DNA from: Escherichia coli
GTDB lineage: Bacteria; Pseudomonadota; Gammaproteobacteria; Enterobacterales; Enterobacteriaceae
Reading direction: 5' to 3' (one strand)
DNA length: 64,000 nt
NCBI RefSeq assembly: GCF_002854065.1
Contig: NZ_CP024147.1
Shown here: in pieces, positions 12,106-37,868 of the stretch
Layout: every line of letters starts with the position of its first letter
Position numbering within the stretch: the first letter of the stretch is position 1
Program-made: the position numbers and the translations under genes
The notes under the pieces: generated by a model
Told to the model about the DNA's origin: nothing
Databases searched by the model: none
The model's input: the letters and a program-made list of their open reading frames with translations, nothing else

Positions 12106-12148
12106 GGCGGGTCGATTTATTTACGTAAATCGGCCCGCTTTCTTTTTA
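12106..12148 (+). terminator. Rho-independent terminator after speA
   Basis: Hairpin gcgggtcgattta-tttacg-taaatcggcccgc followed by tttcttttt. Confidence 0.6.
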
Positions 12149-12234
12149 TATATTCTTAAAAATAATTTAGCTGCTTTTCTTATTAAATAATCTCCCTACA
12201 ATCGCTGCATTAATTAAATGCAGAGGGAACGGTT

Positions 12235-12513: not shown

Positions 12514-12563
12514 TGCTGCCAACTTACTGATTTAGTGTATGATGGTGTTTTTGAGGTGCTCCA

Positions 12564-13261: not shown

Positions 13262-13463
13262 GTTGGAGTCATTACCCACGCAAAGCACTGTTTAGTTTTA
13301 CCATAGTACTTAGTAATAAAAGCATTCATGTTTTCCTCGTATATTATTATTTAAATTCAAACCACCAACTTCATTTGCGAGTCACCGGTATCCCATATTT
13401 TTGGGATGTAGCTATAATTATCCATTCCCGCTATTTAGTCTTCAAAAAAAATTACATTTAATA

Positions 13464-14069
13464 TCATTTATCTTGATTGAGAAATAGTAAGACTAAAAAA
13501 ACAAGCGTCGTCAACCAGCACACTGCTAACACGGTAAGAACGCTAATAAAAACACTCCACTGCTTCGTTTTATACCATTCAATATTTTTGTCAGTATGTT
13601 TTATTGGGAGTAGCTCTTCAGTAGAGAATTCCTGGCTGTTATCATTCCCAGAAATGTGTGCATCAGTGTTTACTTCCCTGGCCTCGCTATCATTGGTATA
13701 GCTACTACAGTCTTCATCACTGCCACGCTCATTCTCACAGACATGTTTCTCGACCTTTCCAAGATATCTGACGCCTTTTCGCGGAATGGTTTTAATTAGA
13801 GAACTCGACAAACCAGCGATGTCTAATGCCTTTCTAAGCATGTAAATCTGCCCATAATAACTGCTGTCGCTTACCGAACCTTTCTGCTCCCGCCAAACCT
13901 CATTGATAATATGTTGCTTATCGGATTCTCCCTGTAGTAAAAGGAGTAAAAATCGATAGCCGTTTTCAGACAGATTAATTACATTGCCTGTACTGGTGGT
14001 GATACGTCGAGACGCTGGGTAAAACTTAACTCCCTGCCCTAAAGAAAAATAAAAACGGTCATCGCTCAT
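13464..14069 (-). CDS. Putative membrane-anchored ToxR/CadC-like transcriptional regulator (N-terminal winged-helix domain, C-terminal TM helix), 201 aa
   Basis: ORF in track; N-terminal region resembles OmpR/ToxR-type DNA-binding domains (GVRYLGKV); hydrophobic stretch WSVFISVLTVLAVCWLTTLVFLVLLFL near the C-terminus; lies in AT-rich DNA. Confidence 0.45.
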   Translation of the reverse strand: MSDDRFYFSLGQGVKFYPASRRITTSTGNVINLSENGYRFLLLLLQGESDKQHIINEVWREQKGSVSDSSYYGQIYMLRKALDIAGLSSSLIKTIPRKGVRYLGKVEKHVCENERGSDEDCSSYTNDSEAREVNTDAHISGNDNSQEFSTEELLPIKHTDKNIEWYKTKQWSVFISVLTVLAVCWLTTLVFLVLLFLNQDK

Positions 14070-15395
14070 AAGTACCGAACCCTGTTTTCTTCTTCACATG
14101 ACTACTCATTACAACTTTGTATGAAGTAAGATGCAAAATCATATTGTTTACATTAAGTTAAGCAATTATACCGTTTAAACAAAGACAATACGTCTCTTTA
14201 TTTCTCATAAAACCCAAATCCCTTACAGGGCTTATTGAAAAATTTAAAAATCACAAATTTCTCAATACTAAAAATGAGATCACATAAGAAATCAAAAAAC
14301 CTTCTCATCTATTTTAAGTTTTCCCAACGTAAAATAAGAGCTTTTATTAATAACTGAACCACTTTACTGTTCTATTTGTTCAGGTATTGCATTACGGTGT
14401 GCTGAGATCCATAGGTGCATCCCTGTATCCCGCGATGAGACTAAAATAGTCGTGATTTAAGCTCGTATCAGATTCTTAGTGAATACCACATTTGTTATAA
14501 TTAAGTGAAAAGATACATTGCTGATTTACATTTTTTGGTTTACAAAATGTCATCACTTACAGAGTTATCGCTGACATATACCTTTAATCTCTTAATCCTT
14601 TCGTGTTATTGCAATACAACCATCCATAAAGCAGGCTATTTTTAGCAGGAAATACTCAGGTGTCAACATTCGAACCCCAACCCTGAAATATTCATATAAA
14701 TTAATGATTTTTTCATTTATTCACACCTAATCAAAGTATTCAAATTCAGATGATTTTTCTGCTCAACAGACACAAACAGGCAATAATACTCTCCAAAGCG
14801 AACAATATTTGGCATTACGATTTAATGCTTCATAATCACCAAATCATTTAACTATAAATTTTCTTATTTTTAACGAAATGGTTGGTGTTTTTTTGGAATT
14901 AAAACACATACATAATATTAACATCTACCGACATTTCACTTTCCGCAAGACGAATGATTTCGAATCCTCATCTACGTTCTCCCATCCCAAATATCTTTAT
15001 TAATAGGCAGTAACGAACACTGTTATAGCAAGATTACCTTATTAACCTAATGGAATCCTTTATGTAACAAGTGAAAATAAATTCCTTAAAATTGATTCTC
15101 AGCAAATCTTAAAAGTTCTCATTATTCTGCAAAATCAGCTTTGCGAATAATCTTATGTTTTTGGGAATTTTGATCTGCTCATTGCTCTCGTGAAAAATAC
15201 AAACAAGAGAAAAAACGCCATTCGTCATGAAAAGAACAGACGTAGCAATGTAATAACATACTAAAATTGATCTCATGAAAGTGGGTGCTTTATAACCAGC
15301 ACAGAAGCTCAGACGTATAAATATTAAACAATTTGCATTGTAAAACGGAGACTATGTATTAAGAAGCCAATCGTAAAAACGGTTCCCTGGCGAGA

Positions 15396-22378: not shown

Positions 22379-23877
22379 CAGAAGCGCTCCAGTTCAGGAA
22401 AAGGTAAATGACCGTGATGCACATGCATGGCACCAAATTCAGCACAGCGGTGTAGCGTGGGAATGTTTTTCCCAGGGTTCAGCAAACCATCGGGGTCAAA
22501 CGCCGCCTTGACCGCATGGAAGGTCGTGATTTCATCGCTATTGAACTGGGCGCACATTTGATTGATTTTTTCTCGCCCGATGCCATGTTCCCCACTGATG
22601 CTGCCGCCAACTTCAACGCAGAGTTCCAGGATCTTCCCGCCCAACTCTTCCGCGCGGGCAAATTCACCGGGTTCGTTGGCATCGAAAAGGATTAACGGGT
22701 GCATGTTGCCATCTCCGGCATGAAACACGTTGGCAACACGTAAATCATATTGCTGCGATAAACGGGCAATGCCTTCCAGTACGCCAGGCAGGGCGCGACG
22801 CGGGATGGTGCCATCCATGCAGTAGTAATCCGGGGAGATACGTCCTACCGCCGGGAACGCATTTTTGCGACCGGCCCAGAAACGTACGCGCTCTGCTTCG
22901 TCCTGTGCCAGACGGACGTCAGTCGTGCCCGCTTTCAACAAGATGTCGTTAACCCGCTCGCAGTCTTCCTGTACGTCAGACTCCACGCCGTCCAGCTCGC
23001 ATAACAAAATCGCTTCGGCGTCGACGGGATAACCGGCATGAATAAAATCTTCCGCCGCGCGGATCGACAGGTTATCCATCATCTCCAGCCCGCCGGGGAT
23101 AATGCCATTGGCGATGATGTCACCAACTGCAAGTCCGGCTTTTTCTACCGAGTCAAAGCTTGCTAACAGAACCCGCGCCACGGGCGGCTTCGGCAGCAGT
23201 TTTACCGTCACTTCGGTGGTCACGCCGAGCATACCTTCCGATCCGGTGAACAACGCCAGCAGGTCAAAACCAGGCGAATCCAGCGCATCCGATCCCAGCG
23301 TCAGTGCCTCGCCATCCAGCGTTTGCACTTCAATTTTCAGCAGGTTATGTACGGTCAGACCATATTTCAGGCAGTGGACGCCGCCGGCATTTTCTGCCAC
23401 GTTGCCGCCAATGGAACAGGCGATTTGTGAGGAAGGGTCCGGTGCGTAGTAGAGATTATGCGGTGCAACGGCCTGGGAGATCGCCAGGTTACGCACGCCT
23501 GGCTGCACGCGCGCGCGGCGACCAACGGGGTTAATGTCGAGGATCTCTTTAAAGCGCGCCATCACCAACAACACACCTTTTTCCAGCGGCAGCGCGCCAC
23601 CAGAAAGCCCGGTGCCTGCACCACGGGTCACCACCGGTACACGCAGGCGATGGCAGACAGCCAGAATCGCTGTCACCTGTTCCATCTGCTTAGGCAGAAC
23701 AACCAGTAATGGACGCGTGCGATACGCGCTCAACCCGTCACACTCGTAAGGAATGATCTCCTCATCGGTATGCAGGATCTCCAGTCCAGGGACATGCTCA
23801 CGCAGTGCCATCAGTACCGATGTGCGGTCGACATCGGGTAAAGCGCCATCAAGACGCTCTTCGTACAAGATGCTCAT
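22378..23877 (-). CDS. glcD: Glycolate oxidase subunit GlcD (FAD-linked oxidase), 499 aa
   Basis: Full-length ORF MSILYEERLDGALPDVDRTSVLMALREHVPGLEILHTDEE... Confidence 0.95.
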   Translation of the reverse strand: MSILYEERLDGALPDVDRTSVLMALREHVPGLEILHTDEEIIPYECDGLSAYRTRPLLVVLPKQMEQVTAILAVCHRLRVPVVTRGAGTGLSGGALPLEKGVLLVMARFKEILDINPVGRRARVQPGVRNLAISQAVAPHNLYYAPDPSSQIACSIGGNVAENAGGVHCLKYGLTVHNLLKIEVQTLDGEALTLGSDALDSPGFDLLALFTGSEGMLGVTTEVTVKLLPKPPVARVLLASFDSVEKAGLAVGDIIANGIIPGGLEMMDNLSIRAAEDFIHAGYPVDAEAILLCELDGVESDVQEDCERVNDILLKAGTTDVRLAQDEAERVRFWAGRKNAFPAVGRISPDYYCMDGTIPRRALPGVLEGIARLSQQYDLRVANVFHAGDGNMHPLILFDANEPGEFARAEELGGKILELCVEVGGSISGEHGIGREKINQMCAQFNSDEITTFHAVKAAFDPDGLLNPGKNIPTLHRCAEFGAMHVHHGHLPFPELERF

Positions 23878-24127
23878 GAGTAGGCTTCGCTTTGTTATGT
23901 TGTGTGGCAGCTGATTTTTGCGCGCTGCTTCTGTGAACAGTTATTAAGCGGGCTTTTCGTTTTCGTCTATCTCTTTAGCTACCGGTCAGACCATTTTTTT
24001 TCCAGCTCTGTGACCTTGTCTTGGTTAACTTAATGTTAAATTGATGTAACATAATCACTTGCGTGATGTGCGTGTTTTGCGAGTTAAGAACAGAAAAATT
24101 GGTCCTACCTGTGCACGAGGTCTGGGA

Positions 24128-24892
24128 ATGAAAGATGAACGTCGCCCTATTTGCGAAGTGGTTGCAGAGAGTATCGAACGGTTAATTATCGACGGCGTAC
24201 TGAAGGTCGGTCAGCCGCTTCCCTCGGAACGTCGACTGTGTGAAAAGCTCGGCTTCTCACGCTCCGCACTGCGTGAAGGGCTGACCGTGCTGCGCGGGCG
24301 CGGGATTATTGAAACGGCGCAGGGTCGCGATTCTCGTGTCGCACGGCTTAATCGGGTGCAGGACACCAGTCCGCTGATCCATCTGTTCAGTACGCAACCG
24401 CGAACGCTGTACGATCTGCTCGATGTTCGCGCATTACTGGAGGGCGAATCGGCAAGGCTTGCGGCAACGCTGGGAACGCAGGCTGATTTTGTTGTGATAA
24501 CCCGCTGTTATGAAAAAATGCTCGCCGCCAGTGAGAACAACAAAGAGATTTCGCTGATCGAACATGCGCAGTTGGATCACGCTTTCCATCTCGCCATTTG
24601 TCAGGCTTCTCACAATCAGGTGCTGGTGTTTACGCTGCAATCATTGACCGATCTGATGTTTAATTCAGTGTTTGCCAGCGTAAATAATCTCTACCATCGA
24701 CCACAGCAAAAAAAGCAGATCGATCGCCAGCATGCGCGGATCTACAACGCGGTGTTGCAGCGGCTGCCGCACGTCGCCCAGCGCGCAGCACGCGATCATG
24801 TGCGGACCGTGAAAAAGAATCTCCACGATATCGAGCTGGAAGGCCACCATTTGATTCGCTCGGCGGTGCCGCTGGAGATGAACCAGAGTTAG
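24128..24892 (+). CDS. glcC: GntR-family transcriptional activator of the glc operon, 254 aa
   Basis: ORF in track; start set at MKDERRPICEVVAESIERLIIDGVLKVGQPLPSERRL (ATG 24128); divergent from glcD. Confidence 0.9.
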   Translation: MKDERRPICEVVAESIERLIIDGVLKVGQPLPSERRLCEKLGFSRSALREGLTVLRGRGIIETAQGRDSRVARLNRVQDTSPLIHLFSTQPRTLYDLLDVRALLEGESARLAATLGTQADFVVITRCYEKMLAASENNKEISLIEHAQLDHAFHLAICQASHNQVLVFTLQSLTDLMFNSVFASVNNLYHRPQQKKQIDRQHARIYNAVLQRLPHVAQRAARDHVRTVKKNLHDIELEGHHLIRSAVPLEMNQS

Positions 24893-24898
24893 CTGGTA

Positions 24899-26041
24899 TT
24901 AAATCTGCTTTTCATACAATCGGTAACGCTTGTACGGCTCTGCCCCAATGCGTTCCAGCATGTTATTCATGCCTGTATTGGTTTCGAGGATCCATGACAT
25001 CTCCAGCGCATCGATCTTCCGGCGGGCAAACGGATCGCGTAAGGCTTCAATCAATAACAGCGCAATCACCGGGCCGATGCGGCTGAACTGATACTCGTCC
25101 CGCACGCCCATCAGCGGCACTCGCGCAGTTCGCACACCGCTGACTTTCAAACGCCACAGCAATTTTGCCCAGCCGAAGGGAAAGAGCGATCCGTTCAGAT
25201 CGGCAATCGCCTCGTTGATGTTCGGCAAGCCGACAATAAACGCGCAGGGTGCAGAATCAATCTCAGCGATGTAGATCATATCGTCCGGCACCAGATATTT
25301 AAGTTGATCGCCCATGGTCGCGAATTCATGTTCGGTAAACGGCACAAATCCCCAGTTGTGCTGCCAGCCAGAGTTGAAAATCTCACGCAGGATCTGCATC
25401 TCTTCGGCAAACCGCTGGCGATTGATGCAGCGAATGGTCACCTTTTTGCGCACCTGATCCATCAGTTTTTTTAGCGCCGGAGAGAAAGTGAGATCGGTTC
25501 GCTGCATCCACCACGCCAGTAAATCAATGCCTTTGTGATAACCCAGTTGTTCAATATGCGCGGCATACCACGGTTTGCCGTGTGGCATCATCGCACAGGG
25601 TGGTGTGTCAAAACCTTCAATCAGTAATCCGCTTTCCTGATTGATATTCAGGCTGAAAGGCCCGCTGATCTTACTTGCACCTTGTGACTTCAACCACGCT
25701 TCCGCTGCGCCAAACAACGCGGCAAAAACCTGCGGATCATCAATGGCGTCAATCATTCCGAAATGACCGGTATCTTCACCGTAACGCTCACGGTGCAAGG
25801 TATCTATTTGCGCGGTAATACGCCCAACTATCTGCCCCGCTTTTTTTGCCACCCACGCCTGCCAGATGATATGGTCCGTCCCCGGATTTTTCGCAGACAA
25901 ATGCTCGCTGCGTTCAATGAATAAAGGGGGTATCCAGTTTGGATCATCGGGATAAAGTGATGACGGAAAAGCGATAAATGCCTTAAGGTCATTTTTATTA
26001 ATTACTTTTTCAATTTTGATCATCAGCAGATCGCATTCCAT
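24899..26041 (-). CDS. yghO: YghO-family protein, predicted acyltransferase (GNAT-like), about 375-380 aa
   Basis: Full-length ORF; start ATG at 26041 or 26023; recognised as YghO family; fold assignment is from memory of family annotation. Confidence 0.6.
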   Translation of the reverse strand: MECDLLMIKIEKVINKNDLKAFIAFPSSLYPDDPNWIPPLFIERSEHLSAKNPGTDHIIWQAWVAKKAGQIVGRITAQIDTLHRERYGEDTGHFGMIDAIDDPQVFAALFGAAEAWLKSQGASKISGPFSLNINQESGLLIEGFDTPPCAMMPHGKPWYAAHIEQLGYHKGIDLLAWWMQRTDLTFSPALKKLMDQVRKKVTIRCINRQRFAEEMQILREIFNSGWQHNWGFVPFTEHEFATMGDQLKYLVPDDMIYIAEIDSAPCAFIVGLPNINEAIADLNGSLFPFGWAKLLWRLKVSGVRTARVPLMGVRDEYQFSRIGPVIALLLIEALRDPFARRKIDALEMSWILETNTGMNNMLERIGAEPYKRYRLYEKQI

Positions 26042-26411
26042 AGTTCTGTGGGTAACAAATAATTAACGGTGAAAAACAGGTTGCAACAGCAACGAACGGC
26101 ATCTTAATAATCAACCCAATGAATACAAACGACGAATAAATAGTATTTATTAATGATTACGATAGGGTCAGCGACTACGCAGAAGCGCCACAATGCCTTT
26201 TGTCGATTTAAGGCGACCGGACAAGGCTTCTTCTTAATATATTCATAAATTAAATATCATTCACAATAAAAACAAAAAACTTAAATTCATTATTTAAATC
26301 AATGTTCATTTTCACACCGATGAAAATACTATCTCATTTATCTTTTATGCCTATATAATCCACCGCATTATTGTCATTTTATTTTGGATATCCAATTTTT
26401 TCGTGGTGTAT

Positions 26412-28133
26412 ATGTCTAATAAAATCTTTACGCATTCCCTACCTATGCGCTATGCCGATTTTCCAACGCTGGTTGATGCTTTGGACTACGCCGCTCTGAG
26501 TAGCGCTGGAATGAATTTTTATGACAGACGTTGCCAACTTGAAGATCAACTGGAATATCAGACGTTAAAAGCGCGTGCCGAAGCTGGTGCGAAGCGGTTG
26601 TTATCGCTAAACCTGAAAAAAGGCGATCGCGTGGCGCTGATTGCCGAAACCAGTAGCGGGTTCGTAGAGGCTTTTTTTTCCTGCCAGTATGCCGGCTTAG
26701 TCGCCGTCCCGTTGGCGATTCCAATGGGCGTCGGTCAGCGGGATTCCTGGAGCGCCAAACTGCAGGGTTTACTGGCAAGTTGCCAGCCCGCTGCCATTAT
26801 CACTGGTGATGAGTGGTTGCCGCTGGTCAATGCCGCCACGCATAACAACCCCGAATTGCATGTATTAAGCCACGCCTGGTTTAAGGCATTACCGGAAGCT
26901 GATGTTGCGCTCCAGCGCCCAGTTCCGGACGATATCGCCTACCTCCAGTACACCTCCGGCAGCACCCGTTTTCCCCGTGGCGTCATTATCACCCATCGCG
27001 AAGTGATGGCTAATCTACGTGCTATAAGCCACGATGGCATTAAATTACGCCCTGGCGACCGCTGCGTCTCCTGGCTGCCTTTCTACCATGATATGGGACT
27101 GGTCGGCTTTCTCCTGACCCCGTTCGCCACGCAGCTTTCAGTAGATTATTTGCGCACTCAGGATTTTGCCATGCGTCCTCTGCAATGGCTTAAATTGATC
27201 AGTAAAAATCGCGGCACCGTTTCCGTTGCGCCGCCGTTTGGCTATGAATTGTGCCAGCGCCGCGTGAATGAAAAAGATCTCGCTGAACTGGATCTTTCCT
27301 GCTGGCGCGTCGCTGGTATTGGTGCAGAACCCATCTCCGCAGAACAACTCCATCAATTCGCTGAATGTTTCCGTCAGGTTAACTTTGACGATAAAACTTT
27401 CATGCCGTGCTACGGACTGGCAGAAAATGCGCTGGCTGTCAGTTTCTCTGATGAAGCCTCCGGGGTTGTGGTTAACGAAGTGGATCGCGACATCCTCGAA
27501 TATCAGGGTAAAGCCGTTGCGCCGGGTGCAGAGACACGCGCCGTATCGACTTTCGTCAACTGCGGTAAAGCGTTGCCGGAACATGGTATTGAAATCCGCA
27601 ATGAAGCAGGTATACCTGTCGCGGAACGTGTGGTAGGCCATATTTGCATCTCCGGCCCTAGCCTGATGAGCGGTTACTTTGGCGACCAGGTTTCACAAGA
27701 CGAGATTGCCGCGACGGGCTGGTTAGACACCGGGGACCTCGGTTATCTGCTGGACGGTTATCTGTATGTCACCGGACGCATTAAAGATCTGATTATTATT
27801 CGTGGCCGTAATATCTGGCCGCAGGATATTGAATATATTGCGGAACAGGAACCGGAAATTCATTCTGGCGATGCGATTGCTTTTGTTACCGCCCAGGAAA
27901 AAATCATTTTGCAGATCCAGTGTCGGATCAGCGATGAAGAACGTCGCGGGCAGCTTATCCACGCGCTGGCAGCACGGATCCAAAGCGAATTTGGCGTAAC
28001 AGCGGCTATCGATCTGTTGCCGCCCCACAGTATTCCCCGAACGTCCTCCGGTAAGCCTGCCCGTGCGGAAGCGAAAAAACGTTATCAGAAGGCTTATGCT
28101 GCCAGTCTTCATGTGCAGGAATCCCTGGCATGA
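26412..28133 (+). CDS. Fatty acyl-AMP ligase / acyl-CoA synthetase-like adenylating enzyme, about 573 aa
   Basis: AMP-binding core motif YTSGSTRFPRGVIITH and the overall architecture of ANL-superfamily enzymes; first gene of a 4-gene operon. Confidence 0.75.
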   Translation: MSNKIFTHSLPMRYADFPTLVDALDYAALSSAGMNFYDRRCQLEDQLEYQTLKARAEAGAKRLLSLNLKKGDRVALIAETSSGFVEAFFSCQYAGLVAVPLAIPMGVGQRDSWSAKLQGLLASCQPAAIITGDEWLPLVNAATHNNPELHVLSHAWFKALPEADVALQRPVPDDIAYLQYTSGSTRFPRGVIITHREVMANLRAISHDGIKLRPGDRCVSWLPFYHDMGLVGFLLTPFATQLSVDYLRTQDFAMRPLQWLKLISKNRGTVSVAPPFGYELCQRRVNEKDLAELDLSCWRVAGIGAEPISAEQLHQFAECFRQVNFDDKTFMPCYGLAENALAVSFSDEASGVVVNEVDRDILEYQGKAVAPGAETRAVSTFVNCGKALPEHGIEIRNEAGIPVAERVVGHICISGPSLMSGYFGDQVSQDEIAATGWLDTGDLGYLLDGYLYVTGRIKDLIIIRGRNIWPQDIEYIAEQEPEIHSGDAIAFVTAQEKIILQIQCRISDEERRGQLIHALAARIQSEFGVTAAIDLLPPHSIPRTSSGKPARAEAKKRYQKAYAASLHVQESLA

Positions 28134-29044
28134 ATCAAACTGTCGCGGTGACGGGCGCTACCGGGTTTATCGGTAAATATATTATCGATAACCTGCTCAC
28201 CCGCGGCTTTCACGTTCGCGCATTGACGCGTACTGCCCGCGCTCACGTCAATGATAATCTTACTTGGGTGCGCGGTTCGCTGGAAGATACACATTCGCTT
28301 AGCGAACTGGTTGCCGGAGCCAGCGCGGTGGTCCATTGCGCCGGGCAAGTGCGCGGACACAAAGAAGAGATTTTTACCCACTGTAACGTTGACGGCAGCC
28401 TGCGCCTGATGCAAGCAGCAAAAGAGAGCGGCTTTTGCCAACGTTTTCTGTTTATCTCTTCGCTGGCGGCGCGCCATCCCGAGCTCTCCTGGTACGCAAA
28501 TTCCAAACACGTCGCCGAACAACGGCTGACGGCAATGGCTGACGAAATTACGCTGGGCGTTTTTCGCCCGACAGCCGTGTATGGTCCCGGCGATAAAGAG
28601 TTAAAACCGCTGTTTGACTGGATGCTGCGCGGCCTGCTGCCACGACTTGGTGCACCAGATACACAGTTCTCTTTCCTGCATGTCACCGATTTTGCGCAAG
28701 CAGTGGGTCAGTGGTTAAGCGCCGAAACTGTACAGACGCAAACCTATGAATTATGCGATGGCGTCGCTGGCGGCTATGACTGGCAACGCGTACGACAGCT
28801 TGCCGCCGAAGCCCGTTGTGGTTCCGTGCGGATGGTTGGCCTTCCTCTGCCGGTACTCACCTGCCTTGCGGATATCAGTACTGCGTTGAGTCGCCTGGCA
28901 GGTAAAGAACCTATGCTGACCCGCTCGAAAATTCGTGAATTAACCCACGCCGACTGGTCGGCAAGTAATAACCGTATTTCTGAAGATATTAATTGTTTTC
29001 CCGGGATTAGCCTGGAACACGCATTACGCAACGGGCTATTTTGA
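28130..29044 (+). CDS. NAD(P)-dependent epimerase/dehydratase-family (SDR) oxidoreductase, 304 aa
   Basis: N-terminal Rossmann motif VTGATGFIGKYI; start overlaps the upstream stop (ATGA). Confidence 0.7.
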   Translation: MNQTVAVTGATGFIGKYIIDNLLTRGFHVRALTRTARAHVNDNLTWVRGSLEDTHSLSELVAGASAVVHCAGQVRGHKEEIFTHCNVDGSLRLMQAAKESGFCQRFLFISSLAARHPELSWYANSKHVAEQRLTAMADEITLGVFRPTAVYGPGDKELKPLFDWMLRGLLPRLGAPDTQFSFLHVTDFAQAVGQWLSAETVQTQTYELCDGVAGGYDWQRVRQLAAEARCGSVRMVGLPLPVLTCLADISTALSRLAGKEPMLTRSKIRELTHADWSASNNRISEDINCFPGISLEHALRNGLF

Positions 29045-29075
29045 TTGTCTTGTTTAAAGGTGTGTTAACGTTTCT

Positions 29076-29324
29076 ATGGTAAATCGTGAAATAGTAATGG
29101 ATTACATCCTTTCCTGTTTACAGGATTTGGTCGAAAACGGTGTGGAAATTAAGCCCGACAGCGATCTCGTCAACGATCTTGGCCTGGAGTCGATCAAAGT
29201 GATGGATCTCTTAATGATGCTGGAAGACAGATTCGATATTTCCATTCCTATTAATATTCTGCTGGATGTCAAAACCCCTGCGCAATTAATGGAAACTCTA
29301 CTTCCATGGCTGGAGAATAAATAA
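29076..29324 (+). CDS. Acyl carrier protein-like small protein, about 75-82 aa
   Basis: Phosphopantetheine-attachment-like motif DLGLESIKVMDL; acidic helical protein; start ambiguous (29076 or 29097). Confidence 0.6.
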   Translation: MVNREIVMDYILSCLQDLVENGVEIKPDSDLVNDLGLESIKVMDLLMMLEDRFDISIPINILLDVKTPAQLMETLLPWLENK

Positions 29325-30496
29325 TGGGGCTATACGATAAATATGCGCGCCTTGCTGGCGAGCGACTGCAATTTAGTGACAACGGGTTAACACCGTTTGG
29401 CACCTGTATTGATGAAGTGTATTCCGCCACCGAAGGCCGGATCGGCAATAAAAAAGTGATTCTGGCCGGGACCAATAATTACCTCGGTTTAACCTTTAAT
29501 CATGATGCCATCGCCGAAGGTCAGGCAGCGTTAGCGGCCCAAGGCACCGGCACCACCGGTTCTCGTATGGCAAACGGCAGTTATGCGCCGCACCTGGCGT
29601 TAGAGAAAGAGATTGCCGAGTTTTTCAATCGCCCTACCGCTATCGTTTTTTCAACCGGTTATACCGCTAATTTAGGCGTCATCAGCGCACTTGCCGACCA
29701 TAACGCCGTGGTGTTACTGGATGCCGACAGCCACGCCAGTATTTATGACGCCTGTTCTCTCGGTGGCGCGGAAATTATTCGTTTCCGCCATAACGATGCT
29801 AAAGATCTGGAACGGCGCATGGTTCGCCTCGGTGAACGGGCGAAAGAGGCGATTATCATCGTTGAGGGTATCTACAGCATGCTCGGTGACGTTGCGCCGC
29901 TGGCGGAAATTGTTGATATCAAACGTCGTCTCGGTGGTTATTTGATTGTCGATGAAGCGCATTCGTTTGGCGTGTTAGGCGCAACGGGGCGCGGACTGGC
30001 TGAAGCTGTCGGCGTTGAAGATGATGTGGATATTATCGTTGGCACCTTCAGTAAAAGTCTGGCCTCGATTGGCGGTTTTGCTGTCGGTTCGGAAGCGATG
30101 GAAGTACTGCGCTACGGCAGCCGCCCGTATATTTTTACCGCCTCTCCTTCTCCGTCCTGCATTGCGACCGTGCGCTCGTCGTTAAAAACTATTGCCACAC
30201 AACCAGAGCTGCGGCAAAAGCTGATGGATAACGCCAACCATCTGTATGACGGTCTGCAAAAACTGGGTTATGAGTTAAGTTCACATATTAGCCCGGTAGT
30301 GCCGGTAATAATCGGTTCGAAAGAGGAAGGTTTACGCATCTGGCGCGAGCTTATTTCGCTGGGCGTTTATGTGAATCTTATCCTGCCACCTGCCGCGCCT
30401 GCAGGCATCACGCTGCTGCGCTGTAGCGTAAACGCTGCCCACAGTCGTGAGCAAATCGATGCCATCATTCAGGCATTTGCTACTCTGAAGCAGTAA
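29324..30496 (+). CDS. PLP-dependent alpha-oxoamine synthase family enzyme (BioF / serine palmitoyltransferase / CqsA-like), 390 aa
   Basis: Class-II aminotransferase fold with lysine motif GTFSKSLASIGGF; start overlaps the ACP stop. Confidence 0.75.
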   Translation: MGLYDKYARLAGERLQFSDNGLTPFGTCIDEVYSATEGRIGNKKVILAGTNNYLGLTFNHDAIAEGQAALAAQGTGTTGSRMANGSYAPHLALEKEIAEFFNRPTAIVFSTGYTANLGVISALADHNAVVLLDADSHASIYDACSLGGAEIIRFRHNDAKDLERRMVRLGERAKEAIIIVEGIYSMLGDVAPLAEIVDIKRRLGGYLIVDEAHSFGVLGATGRGLAEAVGVEDDVDIIVGTFSKSLASIGGFAVGSEAMEVLRYGSRPYIFTASPSPSCIATVRSSLKTIATQPELRQKLMDNANHLYDGLQKLGYELSSHISPVVPVIIGSKEEGLRIWRELISLGVYVNLILPPAAPAGITLLRCSVNAAHSREQIDAIIQAFATLKQ

Positions 30497-30530
30497 TGTG
30501 AGCCCGCCGTGGTGTTGCGCCACGGCGGGT

Positions 30531-31610
30531 TTAATGTTGTCTGTCATACCAATACACCAGGCTCAACGCCACCAGCACAAACGCTATCGGTAAACCGAGC
30601 GCGGTAACAGGTGCGCTCAACGCAAATAGCAATCCCAGATTGACCATGATTTGATAGCTGATCCAGGTGAGTAAGCCAACGATGACACCTACAGCGAGAC
30701 GGCTACCCATCCCTGGCGAGCGCGGGGCACTAAAGGTAAACGGCACAGCCAGCAAAATCATCGCCAGGGTCAGGATGGGTTGCCCCAGTTTTTCCCACAG
30801 TGCAAGGCGGTATTCGCTGCTGGGTTGCCCGGTTTCCTGCAAATAATGGATGTAATGATTAAGCTGACGGACAGAAAAAGTATTCCCCGGCATCGATAGC
30901 TCTTCAAGATCCATACTGGTGAAGGCCGATTGCCAGGCAAGATTATCTGATGTTTCCAGCGTTTCTTTGCCATTCAGCCATTTTTTATGATTCACACCAT
31001 GCAGGATCCACGTTTTGTCGTCTTCAATGGTGGCACTGCGTGCATAAATGTAGGATTCGAGCGAAAGATCATCACGATAATGAAAAATCTCCACGCGCAC
31101 AGGCTGGCCCTGCTCGTTCAGCGATTTTACCGTCACAAATTCATTACCGCGCCTGGCCCACAGCATATTGCCGGTAATGTCATCGTCCTCACCCAACGCA
31201 GTGGCAGTCGATTTGATTTGCAGCGCCTGTTGCTGCAATGGCGACGCTACCCACTCATCTATCGCGCCTAACGAAACAGTCCACAATATCCCGGCAACCA
31301 GCGCCACCAGTGCAATACGGAAGATAGAAAACCCCGTGCTGCGAATGGCGGTAAGCTCACTGTTTTTCGATAACTGCCCCAGGCCAACAATCCCTCCCAA
31401 TAAGGCGATAAACGGCGAAAGTTCGACCAGTGTGCGCGGTAAGGTCATTAGCACCACCAGCACCGCCTGAGTCCAGCGATAACCGCCCGGGCTGACATCA
31501 TCCAGTTCGTTAATCAGGTTGAAGGTGGTAAAAAGCGGCAGCAATAGCCCTGCGGCGGCGGCAAAACCGAGAAAGAGATGACGGATTAAATAGCGACTGA
31601 AAACATTCAT
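30531..31610 (-). CDS. LptF/LptG-family (YjgP/YjgQ) permease paralog, about 359 aa
   Basis: N-terminus MNVFSRYLIRHLFLGFAAAAGLL resembles LptF/LptG; polytopic with a large central soluble loop; start set at the Met with overlap to the upstream gene stop. Confidence 0.55.
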   Translation of the reverse strand: MNVFSRYLIRHLFLGFAAAAGLLLPLFTTFNLINELDDVSPGGYRWTQAVLVVLMTLPRTLVELSPFIALLGGIVGLGQLSKNSELTAIRSTGFSIFRIALVALVAGILWTVSLGAIDEWVASPLQQQALQIKSTATALGEDDDITGNMLWARRGNEFVTVKSLNEQGQPVRVEIFHYRDDLSLESYIYARSATIEDDKTWILHGVNHKKWLNGKETLETSDNLAWQSAFTSMDLEELSMPGNTFSVRQLNHYIHYLQETGQPSSEYRLALWEKLGQPILTLAMILLAVPFTFSAPRSPGMGSRLAVGVIVGLLTWISYQIMVNLGLLFALSAPVTALGLPIAFVLVALSLVYWYDRQH

Positions 31611-32677
31611 CGGGAAAATTTCTGCAGCAAAGAGAAGTCGCGTGCGACCAGCATCAGCAGGCCCATTAGCATGAGTCCGGGCACTAACCACAAACCAGGA
31701 ATGAGAGGAATCGCGCCGTTAGCCACCAGCGTACGGCAGACGTCGCCGCCATAAAAAATGGCAATAAACAGCAACGTCAGTGGCAATAACGTTGAAAATC
31801 GCCCCTGCCGCGGTTTTACCCGACTTAATGAAATGGCCAGCAGCGCCATCAACAATGCTGTCAGGCCACGGCTTTGTCGCCATTGCAGTTCGGCATGATC
31901 GGCTGGAAAGACGGAGCGCGCCAGCTCCGTGACCGATTTCGCTTTGCGTTTGACGTTAGGGCTTTGATCCAGCGGATTCAGATGTAATTGCAGATTACGG
32001 TAGATCTGTTCGTTGTCGTCACGCCCCTGATGATCGAGAAGATAGGCAGTGCCGTTGTGCAACATAACAGTCGGTTTCTCGGGTGATGGGTCAACCACAT
32101 CAACCGAACGGGCGCGGAAAATGCGGGTTCGATTGGCAGTAGAAGTATAAATCAGCGCGTCAGTCAGGCGATTATTATCCTGATCAACCGTCTGCGAAAG
32201 GATCATTCGTCCGTTATCGTTAGTGTTAAATTTCTTTGCCCGCAACTGGCGAACATCCAGCTCCGACTGCGACTGCTGCTCCAGTTGATAAATCTGCGCA
32301 TAAGCCCACGGACGACCATACATCGACAGAAGGGTGACAAAAATACTTAGCGGTATCGCCAGATAAAGAACGGCTTTGTACAAGCGTCCCGGACTGCCCC
32401 CCGCCGCAGAGATAGCGGTAATTTCCGAGTCGGTATACATCTGCCCTAGCGTCACGCCAACTGACACATACAGTCCAACAGGTAACAACATCTCCAGTGC
32501 AATCAGCACTTTGTAGAAAACGATATCCAGCACAACATCAAGTGCTAATGTCCCATTTGCCGCTTCGGTCAGATAACGCTGTGCGGAGTAGCTGGCGAAA
32601 ATAAAGATCAGAAAACCGACGATAATCAGCACCAGACGGCGCGTACCACGCATGATGTAGTGTTCAACCAGCTTCAT
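31607..32677 (-). CDS. LptF/LptG-family (YjgP/YjgQ) permease paralog, 356 aa
   Basis: Same architecture as the adjacent gene; translationally coupled pair. Confidence 0.55.
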   Translation of the reverse strand: MKLVEHYIMRGTRRLVLIIVGFLIFIFASYSAQRYLTEAANGTLALDVVLDIVFYKVLIALEMLLPVGLYVSVGVTLGQMYTDSEITAISAAGGSPGRLYKAVLYLAIPLSIFVTLLSMYGRPWAYAQIYQLEQQSQSELDVRQLRAKKFNTNDNGRMILSQTVDQDNNRLTDALIYTSTANRTRIFRARSVDVVDPSPEKPTVMLHNGTAYLLDHQGRDDNEQIYRNLQLHLNPLDQSPNVKRKAKSVTELARSVFPADHAELQWRQSRGLTALLMALLAISLSRVKPRQGRFSTLLPLTLLFIAIFYGGDVCRTLVANGAIPLIPGLWLVPGLMLMGLLMLVARDFSLLQKFSR

Positions 32678-32707
32678 CTCACTAACGCCCTCAATCCTTT
32701 GAATTTT

Positions 32708-33271
32708 TTATTCATTGATCAGTTTCTGCGCCAGCGCAATGACATGATCTACCTCTTCCGGCGTCAGGCTGCCGTCCTTTGCCCACTGAATTTGCCCAGC
32801 TTTATTCAGCACCAGAATGGTTGAACTCTGCTCCGGCAAGCGCCAGGCAACGCGTCCCTGTCCATTGCCGTCAATAACGAATTGCGCCCACGGATAGCGG
32901 CGTTTATTTTTTTCGATTTTGCCAACGACAAAATAGCCAGTACCAAAGATGGCATCATCAGTGTTCACAATGGTGGTGGGCTGAAAACGATCCTGTGGAA
33001 AGTTTGCCGCTTCAACCGCTTTAATTAACAGTGAGTTCTTCTTCTTCGCTGACTTACGCCCGGCGATATACTGGATAATGCGGACTTTTCCCGCCAATTG
33101 TGTGCTGTTCCACTTTTGGTAGTGAATTTCGTCGTCGCTATTCAGAAGCAGCTCGCCGCCTTCCTGAATATAAACAGGGGTAACCGTTTTGCCAGTGACG
33201 AAATTGTGTGCCTGCACACCCGGGGCTAATAGCATGATAATCAGCGCAATAATCAAACGAGATGACATCAT
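32708..33271 (-). CDS. YtfJ-family secreted/periplasmic protein paralog, 187 aa
   Basis: Signal peptide MMSSRLIIALIIMLLAPGVQA; conserved blocks TTIVNTDDAI and WAKDGSLTPEEV resemble YtfJ (from memory). Confidence 0.5.
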   Translation of the reverse strand: MMSSRLIIALIIMLLAPGVQAHNFVTGKTVTPVYIQEGGELLLNSDDEIHYQKWNSTQLAGKVRIIQYIAGRKSAKKKNSLLIKAVEAANFPQDRFQPTTIVNTDDAIFGTGYFVVGKIEKNKRRYPWAQFVIDGNGQGRVAWRLPEQSSTILVLNKAGQIQWAKDGSLTPEEVDHVIALAQKLINE

Positions 33272-33279
33272 TGCTCCGG

Positions 33280-34104
33280 TTATAGCGGAAAACGCGAAAT
33301 CAGCAGCTCTAAGCGCTGACGAATATCGCTATCCAGCGCCACCGGTGCATCATACGACTGGCGGTTTTCCATATCATCCGCCACCATGTCGTCGTGTTTA
33401 TCCCCCATCAGGCCATTAATGGCGGCGAGGAAACGGGAAATCTGTAACGCCTCTTTATTTTCAGGATCAAGCGATCTTAAGGTGTCGTAATAAGAAACCT
33501 GCTGGCTGATGATTTTTCGCACATCATGAAATTCCCTGCCGGTTAGTCGCGGTTTGGCAATTATCTCTTTCAGGGCATGCATTTGCTTTTGCCGATAGGC
33601 AATAAAACCGCTTACGCTTTCTAACTGGCTATGGCGTAATGAATAGTTCACCAACGACCAGACCGGAGAGCTTAAATAAATTCGTAACAGGTTGCCGTAA
33701 TACGACACAATATTTTTCTTACCGTTACGAAATCCGTCCTGAAAACGTCCCAGAAAAACGGTCGTTTTGCCGAATAAAAATCCGGCCTGATGCTTCTTTA
33801 AATACAGCCGTTGCGCAAAACGCAGGTGCTTGTAGCGCGCTCGCATGTATTTAAACTGTTTACGCTCGTCTGTCGTCAGCTCATCGCCTTTGGCTTGTTT
33901 GCGAATTAAACGAAGTAATTCCTGGCGATCAACGCCATTGAGCCAGAATTGCAGGCATAACGCGTAATTATCATGGATGATTTCGGTGGTACAACTTAGT
34001 GCGATAGTCGGCGGCAAACTGACCTGGGCATCAACAACATCATCTTCCTCAATCGCAACAAATAGATGCTCGCTCGCCTCAAGCGGGAAATATTTTCTCA
34101 TCAT
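33280..34104 (-). CDS. Hypothetical protein, 274 aa, no recognised domain
   Basis: ORF in track, tightly packed between flanking genes of the same operon; coding-like composition. Confidence 0.5.
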   Translation of the reverse strand: MMRKYFPLEASEHLFVAIEEDDVVDAQVSLPPTIALSCTTEIIHDNYALCLQFWLNGVDRQELLRLIRKQAKGDELTTDERKQFKYMRARYKHLRFAQRLYLKKHQAGFLFGKTTVFLGRFQDGFRNGKKNIVSYYGNLLRIYLSSPVWSLVNYSLRHSQLESVSGFIAYRQKQMHALKEIIAKPRLTGREFHDVRKIISQQVSYYDTLRSLDPENKEALQISRFLAAINGLMGDKHDDMVADDMENRQSYDAPVALDSDIRQRLELLISRFPL

Positions 34105-35453
34105 CAGGATTTCTCTCCGGCTGCGTTATAAAGCAAGGAATGGCGCTGAAAAAATGCCTTTAAGGTCGGAATTAGCGAAAGCACCACATCCAGGCATTGA
34201 CCGCCGAAATAAGCAAACGCTGCTCCCAGCACGCCAAACAGATGACAGAACATGAACAGCAATACGATGTAGCCGATTGAGGCGATGGTTTGCGCCACGA
34301 GAAAAGCGCGCTGTTTTCCCGCCATCAATAGCAATGACTCCTGAGGGAAGCCCAGCATCGAGATCACAATTGCGCCCAGCATCACCTGAATCAGGTCATA
34401 CGCTTCGAGATACTTAACGCCAAACACCAGCGAAATGAGCGGCTTGCCGACGATCAACACCGCGAGCGCCACCAGAATACCGATTCCGCCCGCCAGTAAA
34501 CCGGACTTCACACCTAACAACCACGGTCTGGTGGTGCGCGGATCTAAACGCATCACCTCTGGGTAAAAACTTTTACCCAGCAAACCCGCTGGCGTTCCGG
34601 CGGCGTCGAAGAATGTCATGGCGATTTTAAATAACCCGGCGGCAGCGGGTCCTAACACGATCCCCACCAACACTGTGCTGCACGAGTTACGTGCCGACCA
34701 GATGGAGTGGGCAATGTTGGTTGACCAGACAAAACTCCACGCGCCTTTAATGTGTCGGGCAGACTCAAACAGATTCAATTTGAAGGCGTTATGGATATTT
34801 CTGCGGCGTAATTCGCGCGCGGCAAACCACCAGTACATGGTGCCGCCAACCAGATTCGACACGTACCAGGCAATAACAAAACCCGCAAAACCAAAGTCAA
34901 AATACCAGGCTGCGACGCTCCCCGCTGCGCGCAGAAAAGGTTTCGTCGCCTGCTGTACAGCAATCAAATCAAAGCGATCTACCGCACGCAGAATGCCGGT
35001 CGGCGTGGAGGAAGCCATTGAAGGAATGAGCGTGCAATACAGCGCCGCCAGCCAAAAGCTTTGGTCATCCAGACCTAATGAATGGGAAAGGAATGGCAGT
35101 AAGGCAATGCCGCCGACAATCGCCACCGCGCCGCTGACGATATCCAGCGAGAAGGAAAATGAGACGACATTGCGAAATTGCTGCGGATTATTGTTGGTCA
35201 AGGCTGGCGTTCCGTACTGAACCACCAGCTGCCATGTCTGAAACTTAATAAAATCGCTGATCGACTTGGCGTACGATTGTACAATCACCAGTACGCCAAA
35301 CATGGCGGGCGTCATCCCTTTACCGGCACACGAGAGCGCCAACAGACCCAGCAAGGCGCTCACGACATTACTGGAGCCTAACCAGGCGCTATTGCGAATA
35401 ATGGTGCGAAACGCGCCATCTGCAAACCAATGTTTGATGTTAAAACCCGCCAA
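34104..35453 (-). CDS. yghQ: Polytopic membrane protein, putative MOP-superfamily (Wzx/MATE-like) flippase; start codon uncertain (TTG in track)
   Basis: About 449-aa ORF with multiple hydrophobic segments; gene symbol by synteny with yghR/S/T. Confidence 0.5.
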   Translation of the reverse strand: MAGFNIKHWFADGAFRTIIRNSAWLGSSNVVSALLGLLALSCAGKGMTPAMFGVLVIVQSYAKSISDFIKFQTWQLVVQYGTPALTNNNPQQFRNVVSFSFSLDIVSGAVAIVGGIALLPFLSHSLGLDDQSFWLAALYCTLIPSMASSTPTGILRAVDRFDLIAVQQATKPFLRAAGSVAAWYFDFGFAGFVIAWYVSNLVGGTMYWWFAARELRRRNIHNAFKLNLFESARHIKGAWSFVWSTNIAHSIWSARNSCSTVLVGIVLGPAAAGLFKIAMTFFDAAGTPAGLLGKSFYPEVMRLDPRTTRPWLLGVKSGLLAGGIGILVALAVLIVGKPLISLVFGVKYLEAYDLIQVMLGAIVISMLGFPQESLLLMAGKQRAFLVAQTIASIGYIVLLFMFCHLFGVLGAAFAYFGGQCLDVVLSLIPTLKAFFQRHSLLYNAAGEKS

Positions 35454-35498: not shown

Positions 35499-36257
35499 TT
35501 AAGTTAAACTTCGGCGGTCAGAAACGATGGCAACCAGAGAAACCGCCTTCTGTGCCTGTTCCAGCACTTCGCTGTAGGGCGCTCTGGAATCAATCTCAAG
35601 AATTTTTGTGCCGTTATAGCCAATCGTCGACATAACACCGATTTTGTCCTGCAGCTCGGCATAGTCATGGTCAGGCTTGCGGGAGATGGCAGTCTCAATA
35701 TCAATGCCCAGGCGAATAATTAATTCCGGGCGATATTGCGCCATTTGTTGGTATAAACGCCGTTCGCGCTGCGCCAGAAACATGCTTATTTTCCCGGTCG
35801 CACGTTCGACGCCAATCCCCGGTCCATCATAATAAAAGCCCGAAATTTCAGCCTGCGGGAAGCGATCGCTGACCACCAGAACGCCACTTTGCGCCAGTCG
35901 CTGAACCTTGCGTAGATTCGCCATTCTTCGCAGCGAGAAGCAGTACATAATCACCGCCGCCCATAGCGCCGGAGATTTGGTTTTCATGCTTTGGGTTTTC
36001 GAGGATTTGGCCGCCAGTCGCCGTTCCAGCCAGACGCCAACCAACGGCAATCGTTTTATTTTGTCGCCGTCTTCGCCCGAGAGCAGCCCCAAATAGCGGC
36101 GCTCGGTTTGCCAGTGTTGTTGCAGCGATTTCACCAGGTCGGTGGTCAGTGTGGATTTACCGGTGCCATCACACCCGACCACCGCAATCAGCCCCGGAAT
36201 GTAGTTGGGCTGCGGCGCGGTTGTACTAATAACAGTTTGTGTTTGTAGTGCATCCAT
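35499..36257 (-). CDS. yghR: P-loop NTPase (kinase-like), paralog 1 of 3, 252 aa
   Basis: Walker A IAVVGCDGTGKSTLT; shares SDRFPQ...DGP and RKPDH blocks with the next two genes. Confidence 0.65.
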   Translation of the reverse strand: MDALQTQTVISTTAPQPNYIPGLIAVVGCDGTGKSTLTTDLVKSLQQHWQTERRYLGLLSGEDGDKIKRLPLVGVWLERRLAAKSSKTQSMKTKSPALWAAVIMYCFSLRRMANLRKVQRLAQSGVLVVSDRFPQAEISGFYYDGPGIGVERATGKISMFLAQRERRLYQQMAQYRPELIIRLGIDIETAISRKPDHDYAELQDKIGVMSTIGYNGTKILEIDSRAPYSEVLEQAQKAVSLVAIVSDRRSLT

Positions 36258-36288: not shown

Positions 36289-37002
36289 TCAGGAAAGCGC
36301 GGCGTGAATTGCGCGTAGTGACGCTTGCATAATTTCATCGGCTGGTTGCCGACCATCCAGTTCAAGGATCTTTGCGCCATTGAATGTCAGTTGCGGCGTA
36401 ACGGCGATTTTTTCCTGTAACGCTGCCAGTTGGTGGTCAGGTTTACGCGCAAACGCGGTTTGTTCATCAATGCCAAGACGAATCAACAATACGGGCAAAT
36501 AAGACGCCATCCATTGGTACAGCTTCAGCTCGCGCTGCCTTAACATTTTTATCCAACCGTTACCGCCCGTGGTTTTTGCCAATTGCGGGCCATCAAAGCG
36601 AAAACCCGGCACTTCAACCTGCGGGTAGCGGTCGGTGATGAGCAGATAGCCTTGCTGGCTTTTACACAACATTTTGCGAAACTTGTACGCCCGCCAGCAG
36701 GAAAGCAGATAGATAACCAGCGCAGTAATATTGCCAGGCGGTGTTGAGGGTTTTTCGTGCACATGTGCCGCTTTACTTCGCAGATAACGCCCACAAGGTG
36801 CGCCAATAACAGGGAGCTGTGAAATCCATTCGCCAATTCGCCCGGACGATTGCCCGAGATAAATGCGTTCTGTTGGCATTCTTGCTGCCAGTTCATTTAC
36901 CAGGCTTGCCGTGAGGGTCGATTTACCTGAACCATCACATCCTACAATGGCAATAACACGCACTGGCGTGGAATTAATTATTGACATATTACGTTGATTC
37001 AC
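36289..37002 (-). CDS. yghS: P-loop NTPase (kinase-like), paralog 2 of 3, 237 aa
   Basis: Walker A IAIVGCDGSGKSTLT; TDRYPQ...DGP; RKPDH. Confidence 0.65.
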   Translation of the reverse strand: MNQRNMSIINSTPVRVIAIVGCDGSGKSTLTASLVNELAARMPTERIYLGQSSGRIGEWISQLPVIGAPCGRYLRSKAAHVHEKPSTPPGNITALVIYLLSCWRAYKFRKMLCKSQQGYLLITDRYPQVEVPGFRFDGPQLAKTTGGNGWIKMLRQRELKLYQWMASYLPVLLIRLGIDEQTAFARKPDHQLAALQEKIAVTPQLTFNGAKILELDGRQPADEIMQASLRAIHAALS

Positions 37003-37175: not shown

Positions 37176-37868
37176 ATGCAGTCAATAACACCTCCATTAA
37201 TTGCCGTTATTGGTAGCGATGGTTCAGGCAAGTCAACGGTGTGTGAACATCTCATTACCGTTGTCGAAAAATATGGTGCTGCCGAAAGAGTTCATTTAGG
37301 AAAACAAGCCGGAAATGTCGGTCGTGCAGTGACAAAATTACCGTTGATGGGAAAATCCTTACATAAAACAATTGAACGAAATCAGGTGAAAACAGCAAAA
37401 AAATTGCCAGGACCAGTTCCGGCGCTGGTAATTACAGCGTTTGTCGCCCGTCGCTTACTGCGCTTTCTTCATATGCTTGCCTGTCGTCGTCGCGGGTTAA
37501 TTGTTCTAACCGACCGTTATCCTCAGGACCAAATTCCGGGCGCTTACGATGGTACGGTGTTCCCACCTAACGTTGAAGGTAGTCGTTTTGTCTCATGGCT
37601 GGCAAGCCAGGAACGTAAAGCGTTTCACTGGATGGCGAGCCATAAGCCTGATCTGGTCATCAAACTCAATGTTGACCTTGAAGTTGCCTGCGCGCGTAAA
37701 CCCGACCATAAACGGGAATCGCTGGCGAGGAAGATTGCCATAACGCCACAGTTAACCTTTGGTGGTGCACAACTGGTTGATATCGATGCTAATCAGCCAC
37801 TGGAAAAGGTGCTGGTTGATGCAGAAAAAGCGATTACGGATTTTATGACCGCGCGTGGTTATCACTAG
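37176..37868 (+). CDS. yghT: P-loop NTPase (kinase-like), paralog 3 of 3, 230 aa
   Basis: Walker [26 protein letters not shown]; divergent from yghS. Confidence 0.65.

Follow-up and report, generated by a model that had tools for sequence, protein, structure and literature searches.

In Escherichia coli the gene yghO lies back to back with an operon for lipid synthesis, and the question raised by this locus is what the YghO protein does there. The locus was analysed in a 64,000-nucleotide stretch of contig NZ_CP024147.1 (RefSeq assembly GCF_002854065.1), referred to below as the window, in which yghO is an uninterrupted 380-codon open reading frame (ORF) on the minus strand (24899–26041) encoding a protein of 380 aa; identical DNA in RefSeq genomes carries the annotation 'yghO: protein YghO'. 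An earlier sequence-only reading of the window had placed yghO on the minus strand and an operon opening with a fatty acyl-AMP ligase (FAAL) gene on the plus strand, separated by a 370-bp spacer (26042–26411), and these coordinates were borne out by the ORF and by an in-frame ATG at 26412. It had also suggested that YghO, if an N-acyltransferase, could be a tailoring enzyme for the amino-lipid made by the operon. Homology, predicted fold and synteny together indicate that YghO is very probably the ceramide synthase of the cluster, a tandem GNAT N-acyltransferase (CerS/bCerS/Aca homologue) and the E. coli orthologue of Caulobacter CC_1154. Published work already assigns yghO to the ceramide step, and the finding, though correct, is not new.

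The same locus was studied in E. coli BL21(DE3), as ECD_02850–ECD_02854, by Padilla-Gomez et al. (2022; PMC9386255), and the view that it is uncharacterised, taken in the sequence-only reading, did not hold. In that study ECD_02853 (AcpR) was an acyl carrier protein (ACP) carrying 4'-phosphopantetheine, ECD_02851 (AasR) was shown to acylate AcpR, the serine palmitoyltransferase (SPT) was assayed and preferred acyl-AcpR, and ECD_02852 was the candidate keto-sphinganine reductase (PMC9386255). The gene 'yghO ECD_02850' was named as a homologue of the Caulobacter N-acyltransferase CC_1154 (E 1e-107, 44 % identity, 98 % coverage; PMC9386255, Table S2); these figures are the published comparison for the BL21 protein, not an alignment of the window protein, and the two E. 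coli proteins differ at two of 380 residues (S45N and E89K). CC_1154 is one of five genes needed for ceramide in Caulobacter (PMC11087976, PMC11324152). BL21 Star(DE3) has the whole 13.8-kb block of the window at 98.1 % identity.

The AlphaFold2 model of YghO, built with 124 homologues, had a predicted local distance difference test score (pLDDT) of 97.4 and a predicted template-modelling score (pTM) of 0.93. The closest folds in the PDB, identified with Foldseek, were all two-domain GNAT acyltransferases (E 5e-16 to 1e-8, probability 1.00, TM-score 0.5–0.7), and included the clavulanic-acid tandem GNAT 2wpw/2wpx, the glucosamine N-acetyltransferase 5kf1, MAB_4324 (7q3a), MshD (1ozp), VipF, Eis and FemX. 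The two GNAT domains accounted for the whole model and left nothing for a DNA-binding domain; the acyltransferase-like character that had been proposed for YghO was thus supported by fold prediction. Direct searches with the YghO sequence itself gave no match in Pfam (E ≤ 0.01), in NCBIfam or, using phmmer, in the PDB, and the GNAT relationship became visible through the family profile, the homologues and the fold. The homologues P0121, P0122 and P0044 passed the Pfam cutoff for PF00583 (GNAT) in their C-terminal halves, and the family profile weakly matched GNAT chains in the PDB, among them 3tt2 (E 8.6e-4). YghO shares the two-domain architecture of the solved tandem GNATs, but its sequence identity to them is 9–14 %, it is 40–80 residues longer than the best matches and, whereas most of these enzymes use acetyl-CoA on soluble substrates, it would be expected to use a long acyl chain and a lipid acceptor.

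At E ≤ 1e-3 a search collected 6518 representatives of 50 %-identity clusters, which makes the YghO family a large one. The homologues of Nitrosomonas eutropha and Azotobacter vinelandii, two species that appear in published orthologue tables (PMC9386255, PMC11324152), were 49–60 % identical to YghO over residues 2–374, and for ten representatives with 44–49 % identity the cluster names read Kiloniellales only. Three metagenomic members had unusual domain compositions. P0191 (940 aa) has a YghO-like domain with a C-terminal AMP-binding (FAAL) domain, and its gene adjoins one for a monogalactosyldiacylglycerol (MGDG)-synthase-type glycosyltransferase, with spt absent within 8 kb; in P0132 (630 aa) an N-terminal fatty-acid hydroxylase domain is fused to the YghO-like domain; and P0121 (784 aa) is a tandem duplication of the YghO-like domain. 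Two YghO homologues were found in Shimwellia pseudoproteus (L032 and L019). One (84 % identity) is in the usual cluster; the second (~75 %), encoded on a separate contig where no cluster gene lies within 10 kb of it, may be a paralogue with another role.

Gene neighbourhoods were compared across species using a 14-sequence YghO alignment and one genome per species. The best 80 loci (47–96 % identity; Caulobacter was not among them) were searched with thirteen E. coli cluster proteins over the 10 kb around the YghO homologue; the contigs of the most distant YghO representatives were too short to inform on gene context. At least one of AasR, CerR, Spt and LptF2/G2 was encoded within 10 kb of the YghO homologue at 76 of the 80 loci, and at all 50 of the loci that had at least 9 kb on each side. 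The gene for the AasR ligase was adjacent and divergent at 45 of the 80, with 229–1367 bp between aligned starts, and this layout extended to Pseudomonas, A. vinelandii and metagenome bins of Gemmatimonadetes and Desulfobacteraceae. LptF/G paralogues lay within 10 kb at 49 of the 80 loci, Nitrosomonas included, in which the YghO homologue adjoins lptF2/G2 and spt is found elsewhere, in agreement with the published genome description (PMC11324152).

In Serratia, Citrobacter, Pluralibacter and Kosakonia, yghO was always divergent from a ligase–reductase–ACP–spt series, while its outer neighbour varied (glcC in E. coli, a deoC-like gene in Citrobacter, usp in Pluralibacter and dgkA in Serratia and Kosakonia). 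Since the outer flank varies and the operon side is constant, yghO forms the edge of a mobile block. The suggestion that positions 25–38 kb of the window are one island was supported, in that yghO–yghT (24.9–37.9 kb) moves as a unit into differing neighbourhoods in other Enterobacterales, where yghR, yghS and yghT are syntenic with the cluster in variable order.

Fold and synteny also bear on the alternative that YghO is a GNAT whose acetylation or acylation target, perhaps a protein lysine or a small molecule, has nothing to do with the operon, and that it neighbours aasR by coincidence; in older annotations it is a 'DNA-binding protein' or a regulator. A lysine acetyltransferase screen of GNAT candidates did include K-12 YghO, and the nearest solved structures acetylate small molecules; however, the only positives in that screen were RimI, YiaC, YjaB and PhnO, and the K-12 protein that was tested has an N-terminus derived from IS5 (see below). 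Some database entries still name YghO a 'DNA-binding protein', a function for which the two GNAT domains leave no room in the model. The linkage to sphingolipid genes in 76 of 80 species and at every fully flanked locus, the fusions with FAAL and fatty-acid hydroxylase domains, and the requirement for the Caulobacter orthologue in ceramide formation all argue against chance adjacency, and we regard this alternative as highly improbable.

In the proposed pathway, AasR loads a fatty acid onto the dedicated carrier AcpR and Spt condenses acyl-AcpR with serine to give 3-oxo-sphinganine, activities that have been shown for the E. coli proteins (PMC9386255). YghO, as a soluble or peripheral protein, would N-acylate 3-oxo-sphinganine or its reduced form from an acyl thioester, and the CerR homologue would reduce the 3-keto group, the product being dihydroceramide. 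The Caulobacter enzyme bCerS is cytoplasmic and peripherally membrane-bound, and its step has been proposed to precede that of the reductase, a protein that localised to the periplasm (PMC11087976). Synteny and the parallel with Caulobacter suggest that lptF2/G2, ytfJ, the gene for a 274-aa protein, yghQ and yghR/S/T probably modify and export the lipid. The earlier notion of a tailoring enzyme was therefore right in tying YghO to the operon, as the synteny and the gene fusions do, but not in the kind of step, since what is predicted is the core N-acylation that forms ceramide and the 'amino-lipid' would be the sphingoid base.

A tailoring role would apply if YghO were the N-acyltransferase of the pathway for a different amine, for example one in the head group. 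The enterobacterial head-group genes (yghQ, yghR/S/T, the gene for the 274-aa protein and ytfJ) are unlike those of Caulobacter, so that the chemistry may differ. On the other hand, the block encodes no other acyltransferase that could form the ceramide amide bond, YghO is, by the published comparison, a full-length homologue of CC_1154, and aasR, cerR and spt accompany YghO homologues in taxa without the enterobacterial head-group genes. Acylation of another amine is, in our judgement, likewise highly improbable, and the ceramide synthase assignment is preferred to both alternatives.

Several points nevertheless weigh against that assignment. The comparison with CC_1154 was made for the BL21 protein and, as described above, the YghO sequence itself drew no match in direct family searches. 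In BL21 overexpressing SPT, AcpR and AasR, spots migrating like sphinganine and ceramide were attributed 'possibly' to 'intrinsic enzymes', and the evidence for ceramide is co-migration on thin-layer chromatography only (PMC9386255). Neither an assay of E. coli YghO nor a report of a native E. coli sphingolipid was found in the literature searched. Distant members of the YghO family could have other substrates. Some lineages also carry inactivating mutations: E. coli O145 RM8995-C1 (L014) has a stop at yghO codon 116 (841–1983) and a frameshift in lptF2 (7645–8618), and CUWW06 (L001), to which the window is near-identical over the block, has a Trp-to-stop change in yghQ (23206–24555), of which the window keeps an intact copy. 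The pathway is therefore not under selection in all lineages.

The closest characterised relative of YghO, Caulobacter CC_1154 (CCNA_01212; CerS, bCerS or Aca), belongs to the same GNAT-type family and is clustered, like yghO, with aasR, cerR, acpR, spt and second copies of lptF and lptG. The two systems differ in layout, as CC_1154 is found at a distance of ~8 genes from spt and does not diverge from aasR (CC_1154 compared with CC_1162–1165; PMC11324152), and in the type of evidence, the requirement of CC_1154 for ceramide having been shown genetically and the activity of E. coli YghO being predicted. They also differ in head-group genes: in the E. coli block, yghQ, yghR/S/T, the gene for the 274-aa protein and ytfJ stand in place of the CPG head-group genes of Caulobacter, namely those for a ceramide kinase and the Tam41-like CC_1161. 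Head-group chemistry in the enterobacteria may thus differ from the Caulobacter type. At the locus of a distant homologue (44 % identity) the gene diverges from a ligase–reductase–phosphopantetheinyl transferase series, followed by DAGK_cat, a Tam41-like gene and two LptF/G genes, an assembly that corresponds to the phosphosphingolipid genes of the Caulobacter type. The Caulobacter region encodes LptC2/F2/G2 and a flippase that have been proposed to serve in sphingolipid export (PMC11324152). The literature searched gave no description of the lipid that E. coli and other Enterobacterales would make, of the conditions under which they would do so, or of the role of yghQ/R/S/T, the gene for the 274-aa protein and ytfJ, and on enterobacterial sphingolipids nothing was found beyond PMC9386255.

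As regards the distribution of these genes, YghR/S/T and the 274-aa protein accompany the cluster mainly in Enterobacterales, with YghR/S/T-like genes also in two Pseudomonas species and two metagenome bins. In distant relatives such as L004 their place is taken by genes of the DAGK_cat (ceramide kinase), Tam41-like, NTP_transf_3 and Metallophos types.

The predicted reaction, N-acylation of a sphingoid base, is that of the eukaryotic ceramide synthases (Lag1/CerS, with the TLC domain). These are integral membrane proteins of an unrelated fold, whereas bCerS is a peripheral cytoplasmic protein of the GNAT type (PMC11087976). YghO is outside the Lag1/CerS family, and the shared reaction is a case of convergence.

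The block is widespread in E. coli. Of 5426 complete E. coli genomes, 4043 covered at least 80 % of the 13.8-kb segment glcC–yghT; the corresponding numbers were 4139 for yghO with the spacer and 4067 for the four-gene operon. The intact block is therefore the majority state in the species, in contrast to the published framing, in which the genes were presented as a feature of E. coli B and of enterotoxigenic E. coli (ETEC) B7A and the IS5 deletion of K-12 was not discussed (PMC9386255). Coverage of the block was 39 % in K-12 derivatives, and other genomes had IS1-associated or larger losses.

The K-12 deletion could be placed to the base by blast comparison of the K-12-type locus (L002) with the window. 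Homology ended at 26001 and resumed at 34385, the interval 26002–34384 (8383 bp) being replaced by a 1194-bp IS5, and in the junction alignment the IS5 end GGAAGGTGCGAACAAG followed directly after window position 26001. K-12 lacks the opening codons of yghO, all of the spacer, the operon genes aasR, cerR, acpR and spt, then lptG2, lptF2, the ytfJ-family gene and the 274-aa protein gene and, at the far end, the 3' part of yghQ, and K-12 YghO is a chimera with its first 12 residues from IS5. The flanks of the IS5 are TTAA and CTAA, which do not constitute a target duplication; the deletion therefore accompanied IS5. Copy 9 of IS5 is listed under 'yghO' in BW25113 (PMC11677980). K-12 has lost the pathway through an IS5-associated deletion of 8.4 kb, in agreement with the sequence-only reading, in which the K-12 locus was described as disrupted, with IS5 next to yghO.

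The spacer between yghO and aasR (26042–26411, 370 bp) had been described as AT-rich and typical of a shared regulatory region. Its G+C content is 0.319 compared with 0.512 for the whole window, a level as low as which is seen in only 1.5 % of 370-bp windows, and the AT run that had been quoted, ttatttaaatcaatgttcattttcac, is located at 26290–26315. Other spacers in the window are also AT-rich (yghS–yghT 0.301 and pitB–gss 0.292 G+C), and an AT shift (mean −0.12) was seen in the orthologous spacers of all 45 taxa in which the genes diverge, including taxa far outside the enterobacteria, so that the shift is a general property of promoter regions. The AT-richness is therefore real, but as a regulatory signature it is ordinary for promoter-bearing spacers here. 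Given the conserved divergent layout, the promoters of yghO and of the operon presumably both lie in the spacer, which would thus be a divergent promoter region.

In an alignment of six E. coli sequences, no segment of the block varied more than the spacer, with 12.9 % variable columns compared with 0.4–10.8 % in genes. The variation was in its centre, whereas the operon-proximal part was invariant; a near-invariant block of ~115 bp (26296–26411, plus strand) lies directly upstream of the aasR start. A lenient hexamer scan identified in it a perfect −10 hexamer, TATAAT (26354–26359), preceded at 17-bp spacing by a weak −35 element, ATCTCA (3/6), and the block is a candidate for the promoter and 5' untranslated region of the operon. 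A consensus promoter and terminator scan of the spacer gave two weak sites compared with 2.9 expected from shuffles, and no convincing promoter for yghO was seen in it. When the spacers of five genera were aligned, conservation was confined to the two start regions and nothing like an operator emerged, an Rfam search of the spacer gave nothing credible, and checks for repeats and small ORFs were unremarkable. Resemblances to Pho and Fur boxes in the spacer were too weak, as judged by eye only, without a tool search. An 18-nt AT-rich direct repeat with 44-bp spacing, TATATTCATAAATTAAAT at 26238–26255 and TAAATTCATTATTTAAAT at 26282–26299, was dismissed as probably due to chance, the second copy lying in a segment that varies among E. 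coli.

It had further been suggested that the spacer may be silenced by H-NS, which would make the cluster cryptic in laboratory conditions. The low G+C content of the spacer relative to the window is in keeping with this, as are the want of any native sphingolipid report in the literature searched and the poor −35 element of the best promoter candidate, which would fit a need for an activator or anti-silencer. However, equally AT-rich spacers (0.29–0.30 G+C) occur elsewhere in the window, the AT shift recurs in all 45 taxa, and the cluster genes, at 0.50–0.52 G+C, are typical of the genome (window 0.512) and unlike typical H-NS-bound foreign DNA. The consensus TCGATAAATT has one match with two mismatches in the spacer (26242–26251), and its total in the window, 67 compared with 64.7 expected, is at chance level. 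The H-NS motif is only weakly predictive. The ceramide-like spots hint at expression of yghO and cerR from the BL21 chromosome (PMC9386255), and no paper linking H-NS to the locus was found in the literature searched. With AT content as its sole support, silencing by H-NS appears unlikely.

For a long time sphingolipids were considered a rarity among bacteria. Escherichia coli K-12, the reference organism of lipid biochemistry, cannot make them because of the IS5-linked deletion. As the assignment of yghO is published, the locus does not represent a new kind of system. The present comparison adds the scale of the block in E. coli and the ends of the K-12 deletion to the base, together with the conservation of the divergent yghO–aasR layout across distant lineages and the difference between the enterobacterial head-group and transport genes and those of Caulobacter. 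The presence of the block in common strains such as BL21(DE3) opens an E. coli sphingolipid, the timing of its synthesis and its role in the gut or in infection to direct testing. Taken as a whole, the observations tentatively suggest, at somewhat less than even chances, that about three quarters of E. coli and many other Enterobacterales (Serratia, Citrobacter, Erwinia, Hafnia, Pluralibacter and others) make an undescribed outer-membrane sphingolipid. Its ceramide would be formed by AasR, AcpR, Spt, YghO and CerR, its head group by YghQ, YghR/S/T, the 274-aa protein and YtfJ and not by the Cpg enzymes of Caulobacter, and its export would depend on the second LptF/LptG, under control from the yghO–aasR spacer. 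If so, this lipid would have been overlooked because K-12 carries the IS5 deletion.

The start of yghO is uncertain, because the homologues of Serratia, Citrobacter, Pluralibacter, Pantoea, Erwinia and Kosakonia are 374 aa long and begin at the equivalent of ATG 26023. The ATG at 26041 adds six codons (MECDLL), an extension confined to E. coli, to this conserved 374-aa core. At the other end yghO converges with glcC (plus strand), the two stop codons being 6 bp apart (24892–24899), and glcC–yghO is among the overlapping-transcript ('excludon') candidates of a K-12 RNA-seq study (PMC12288877).

On the plus strand the block opens with aasR (26412–28133), encoding the fatty acyl-AMP ligase, the specialised acyl-ACP synthetase for AcpR, which scored 873 bits with NCBIfam NF006624 (cutoff 600) and matched Pfam AMP-binding. 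PGAP places its start at 26445 in some genomes (CUWW06 and BL21 Star) and at the equivalent of 26412 in others (MS 200-1). The start at 26412 is favoured because the ATG, in an ATG-TCT context, is kept in five genera and the NF006624 model aligns from residue 6; the shorter annotation from 26445 is probably wrong.

The cerR homologue (28130–29044, plus strand) encodes a reductase of the NAD-dependent epimerase/dehydratase family (Pfam Epimerase/NmrA), predicted to be the 3-keto reductase. Its product opens directly with the Rossmann motif MNQTVAVTGATGFIGKY (28130–28330), and no signal peptide was apparent by eye. Caulobacter CerR has been reported to be periplasmic (PMC11087976), and either the localisation of the E. 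coli homologue would differ from this or its export would be unconventional. Two further plus-strand genes follow, acpR (29076–29324) for the specialised acyl carrier protein of 82 aa (Pfam PP-binding) and spt (29324–30496) for the serine palmitoyltransferase (NCBIfam NF047599, 600 bits compared with a cutoff of 500).

The next seven genes are on the minus strand. The first two, lptG2 (30531–31610) and lptF2 (31607–32677), are second copies of lipopolysaccharide-export permease genes with a putative role in sphingolipid export (Pfam LptF_LptG). They are followed by the ytfJ-family gene (32708–33271; Pfam), the gene for the 274-aa protein (33280–34104), whose product had no sequence match in Pfam, NCBIfam or the PDB, and yghQ (34104–35453) for a flippase of the MOP/Wzx type (Pfam). 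The products of yghR (35499–36257) and yghS (36289–37002), and that of yghT (37176–37868) on the plus strand, are paralogous P-loop proteins resembling dTMP kinase, with weak Thymidylate_kin/AAA matches; pitB and gss lie beyond yghT.

Away from the block, the region 10101–15041 of the window has speA (arginine decarboxylase, 10101–12089) followed by an IS1 transposase ORF (12758–13261) and an ORF for a 201-aa winged-helix regulator (13464–14069), the last two in a stretch of low G+C content (~13.2–15.0 kb) upstream of glcA. In CUWW06, the closest genome, the speA–glcA region contains two IS1 copies and fragments of a fimbrial usher gene and of regulators, and the region looks like an IS1-associated rearrangement.

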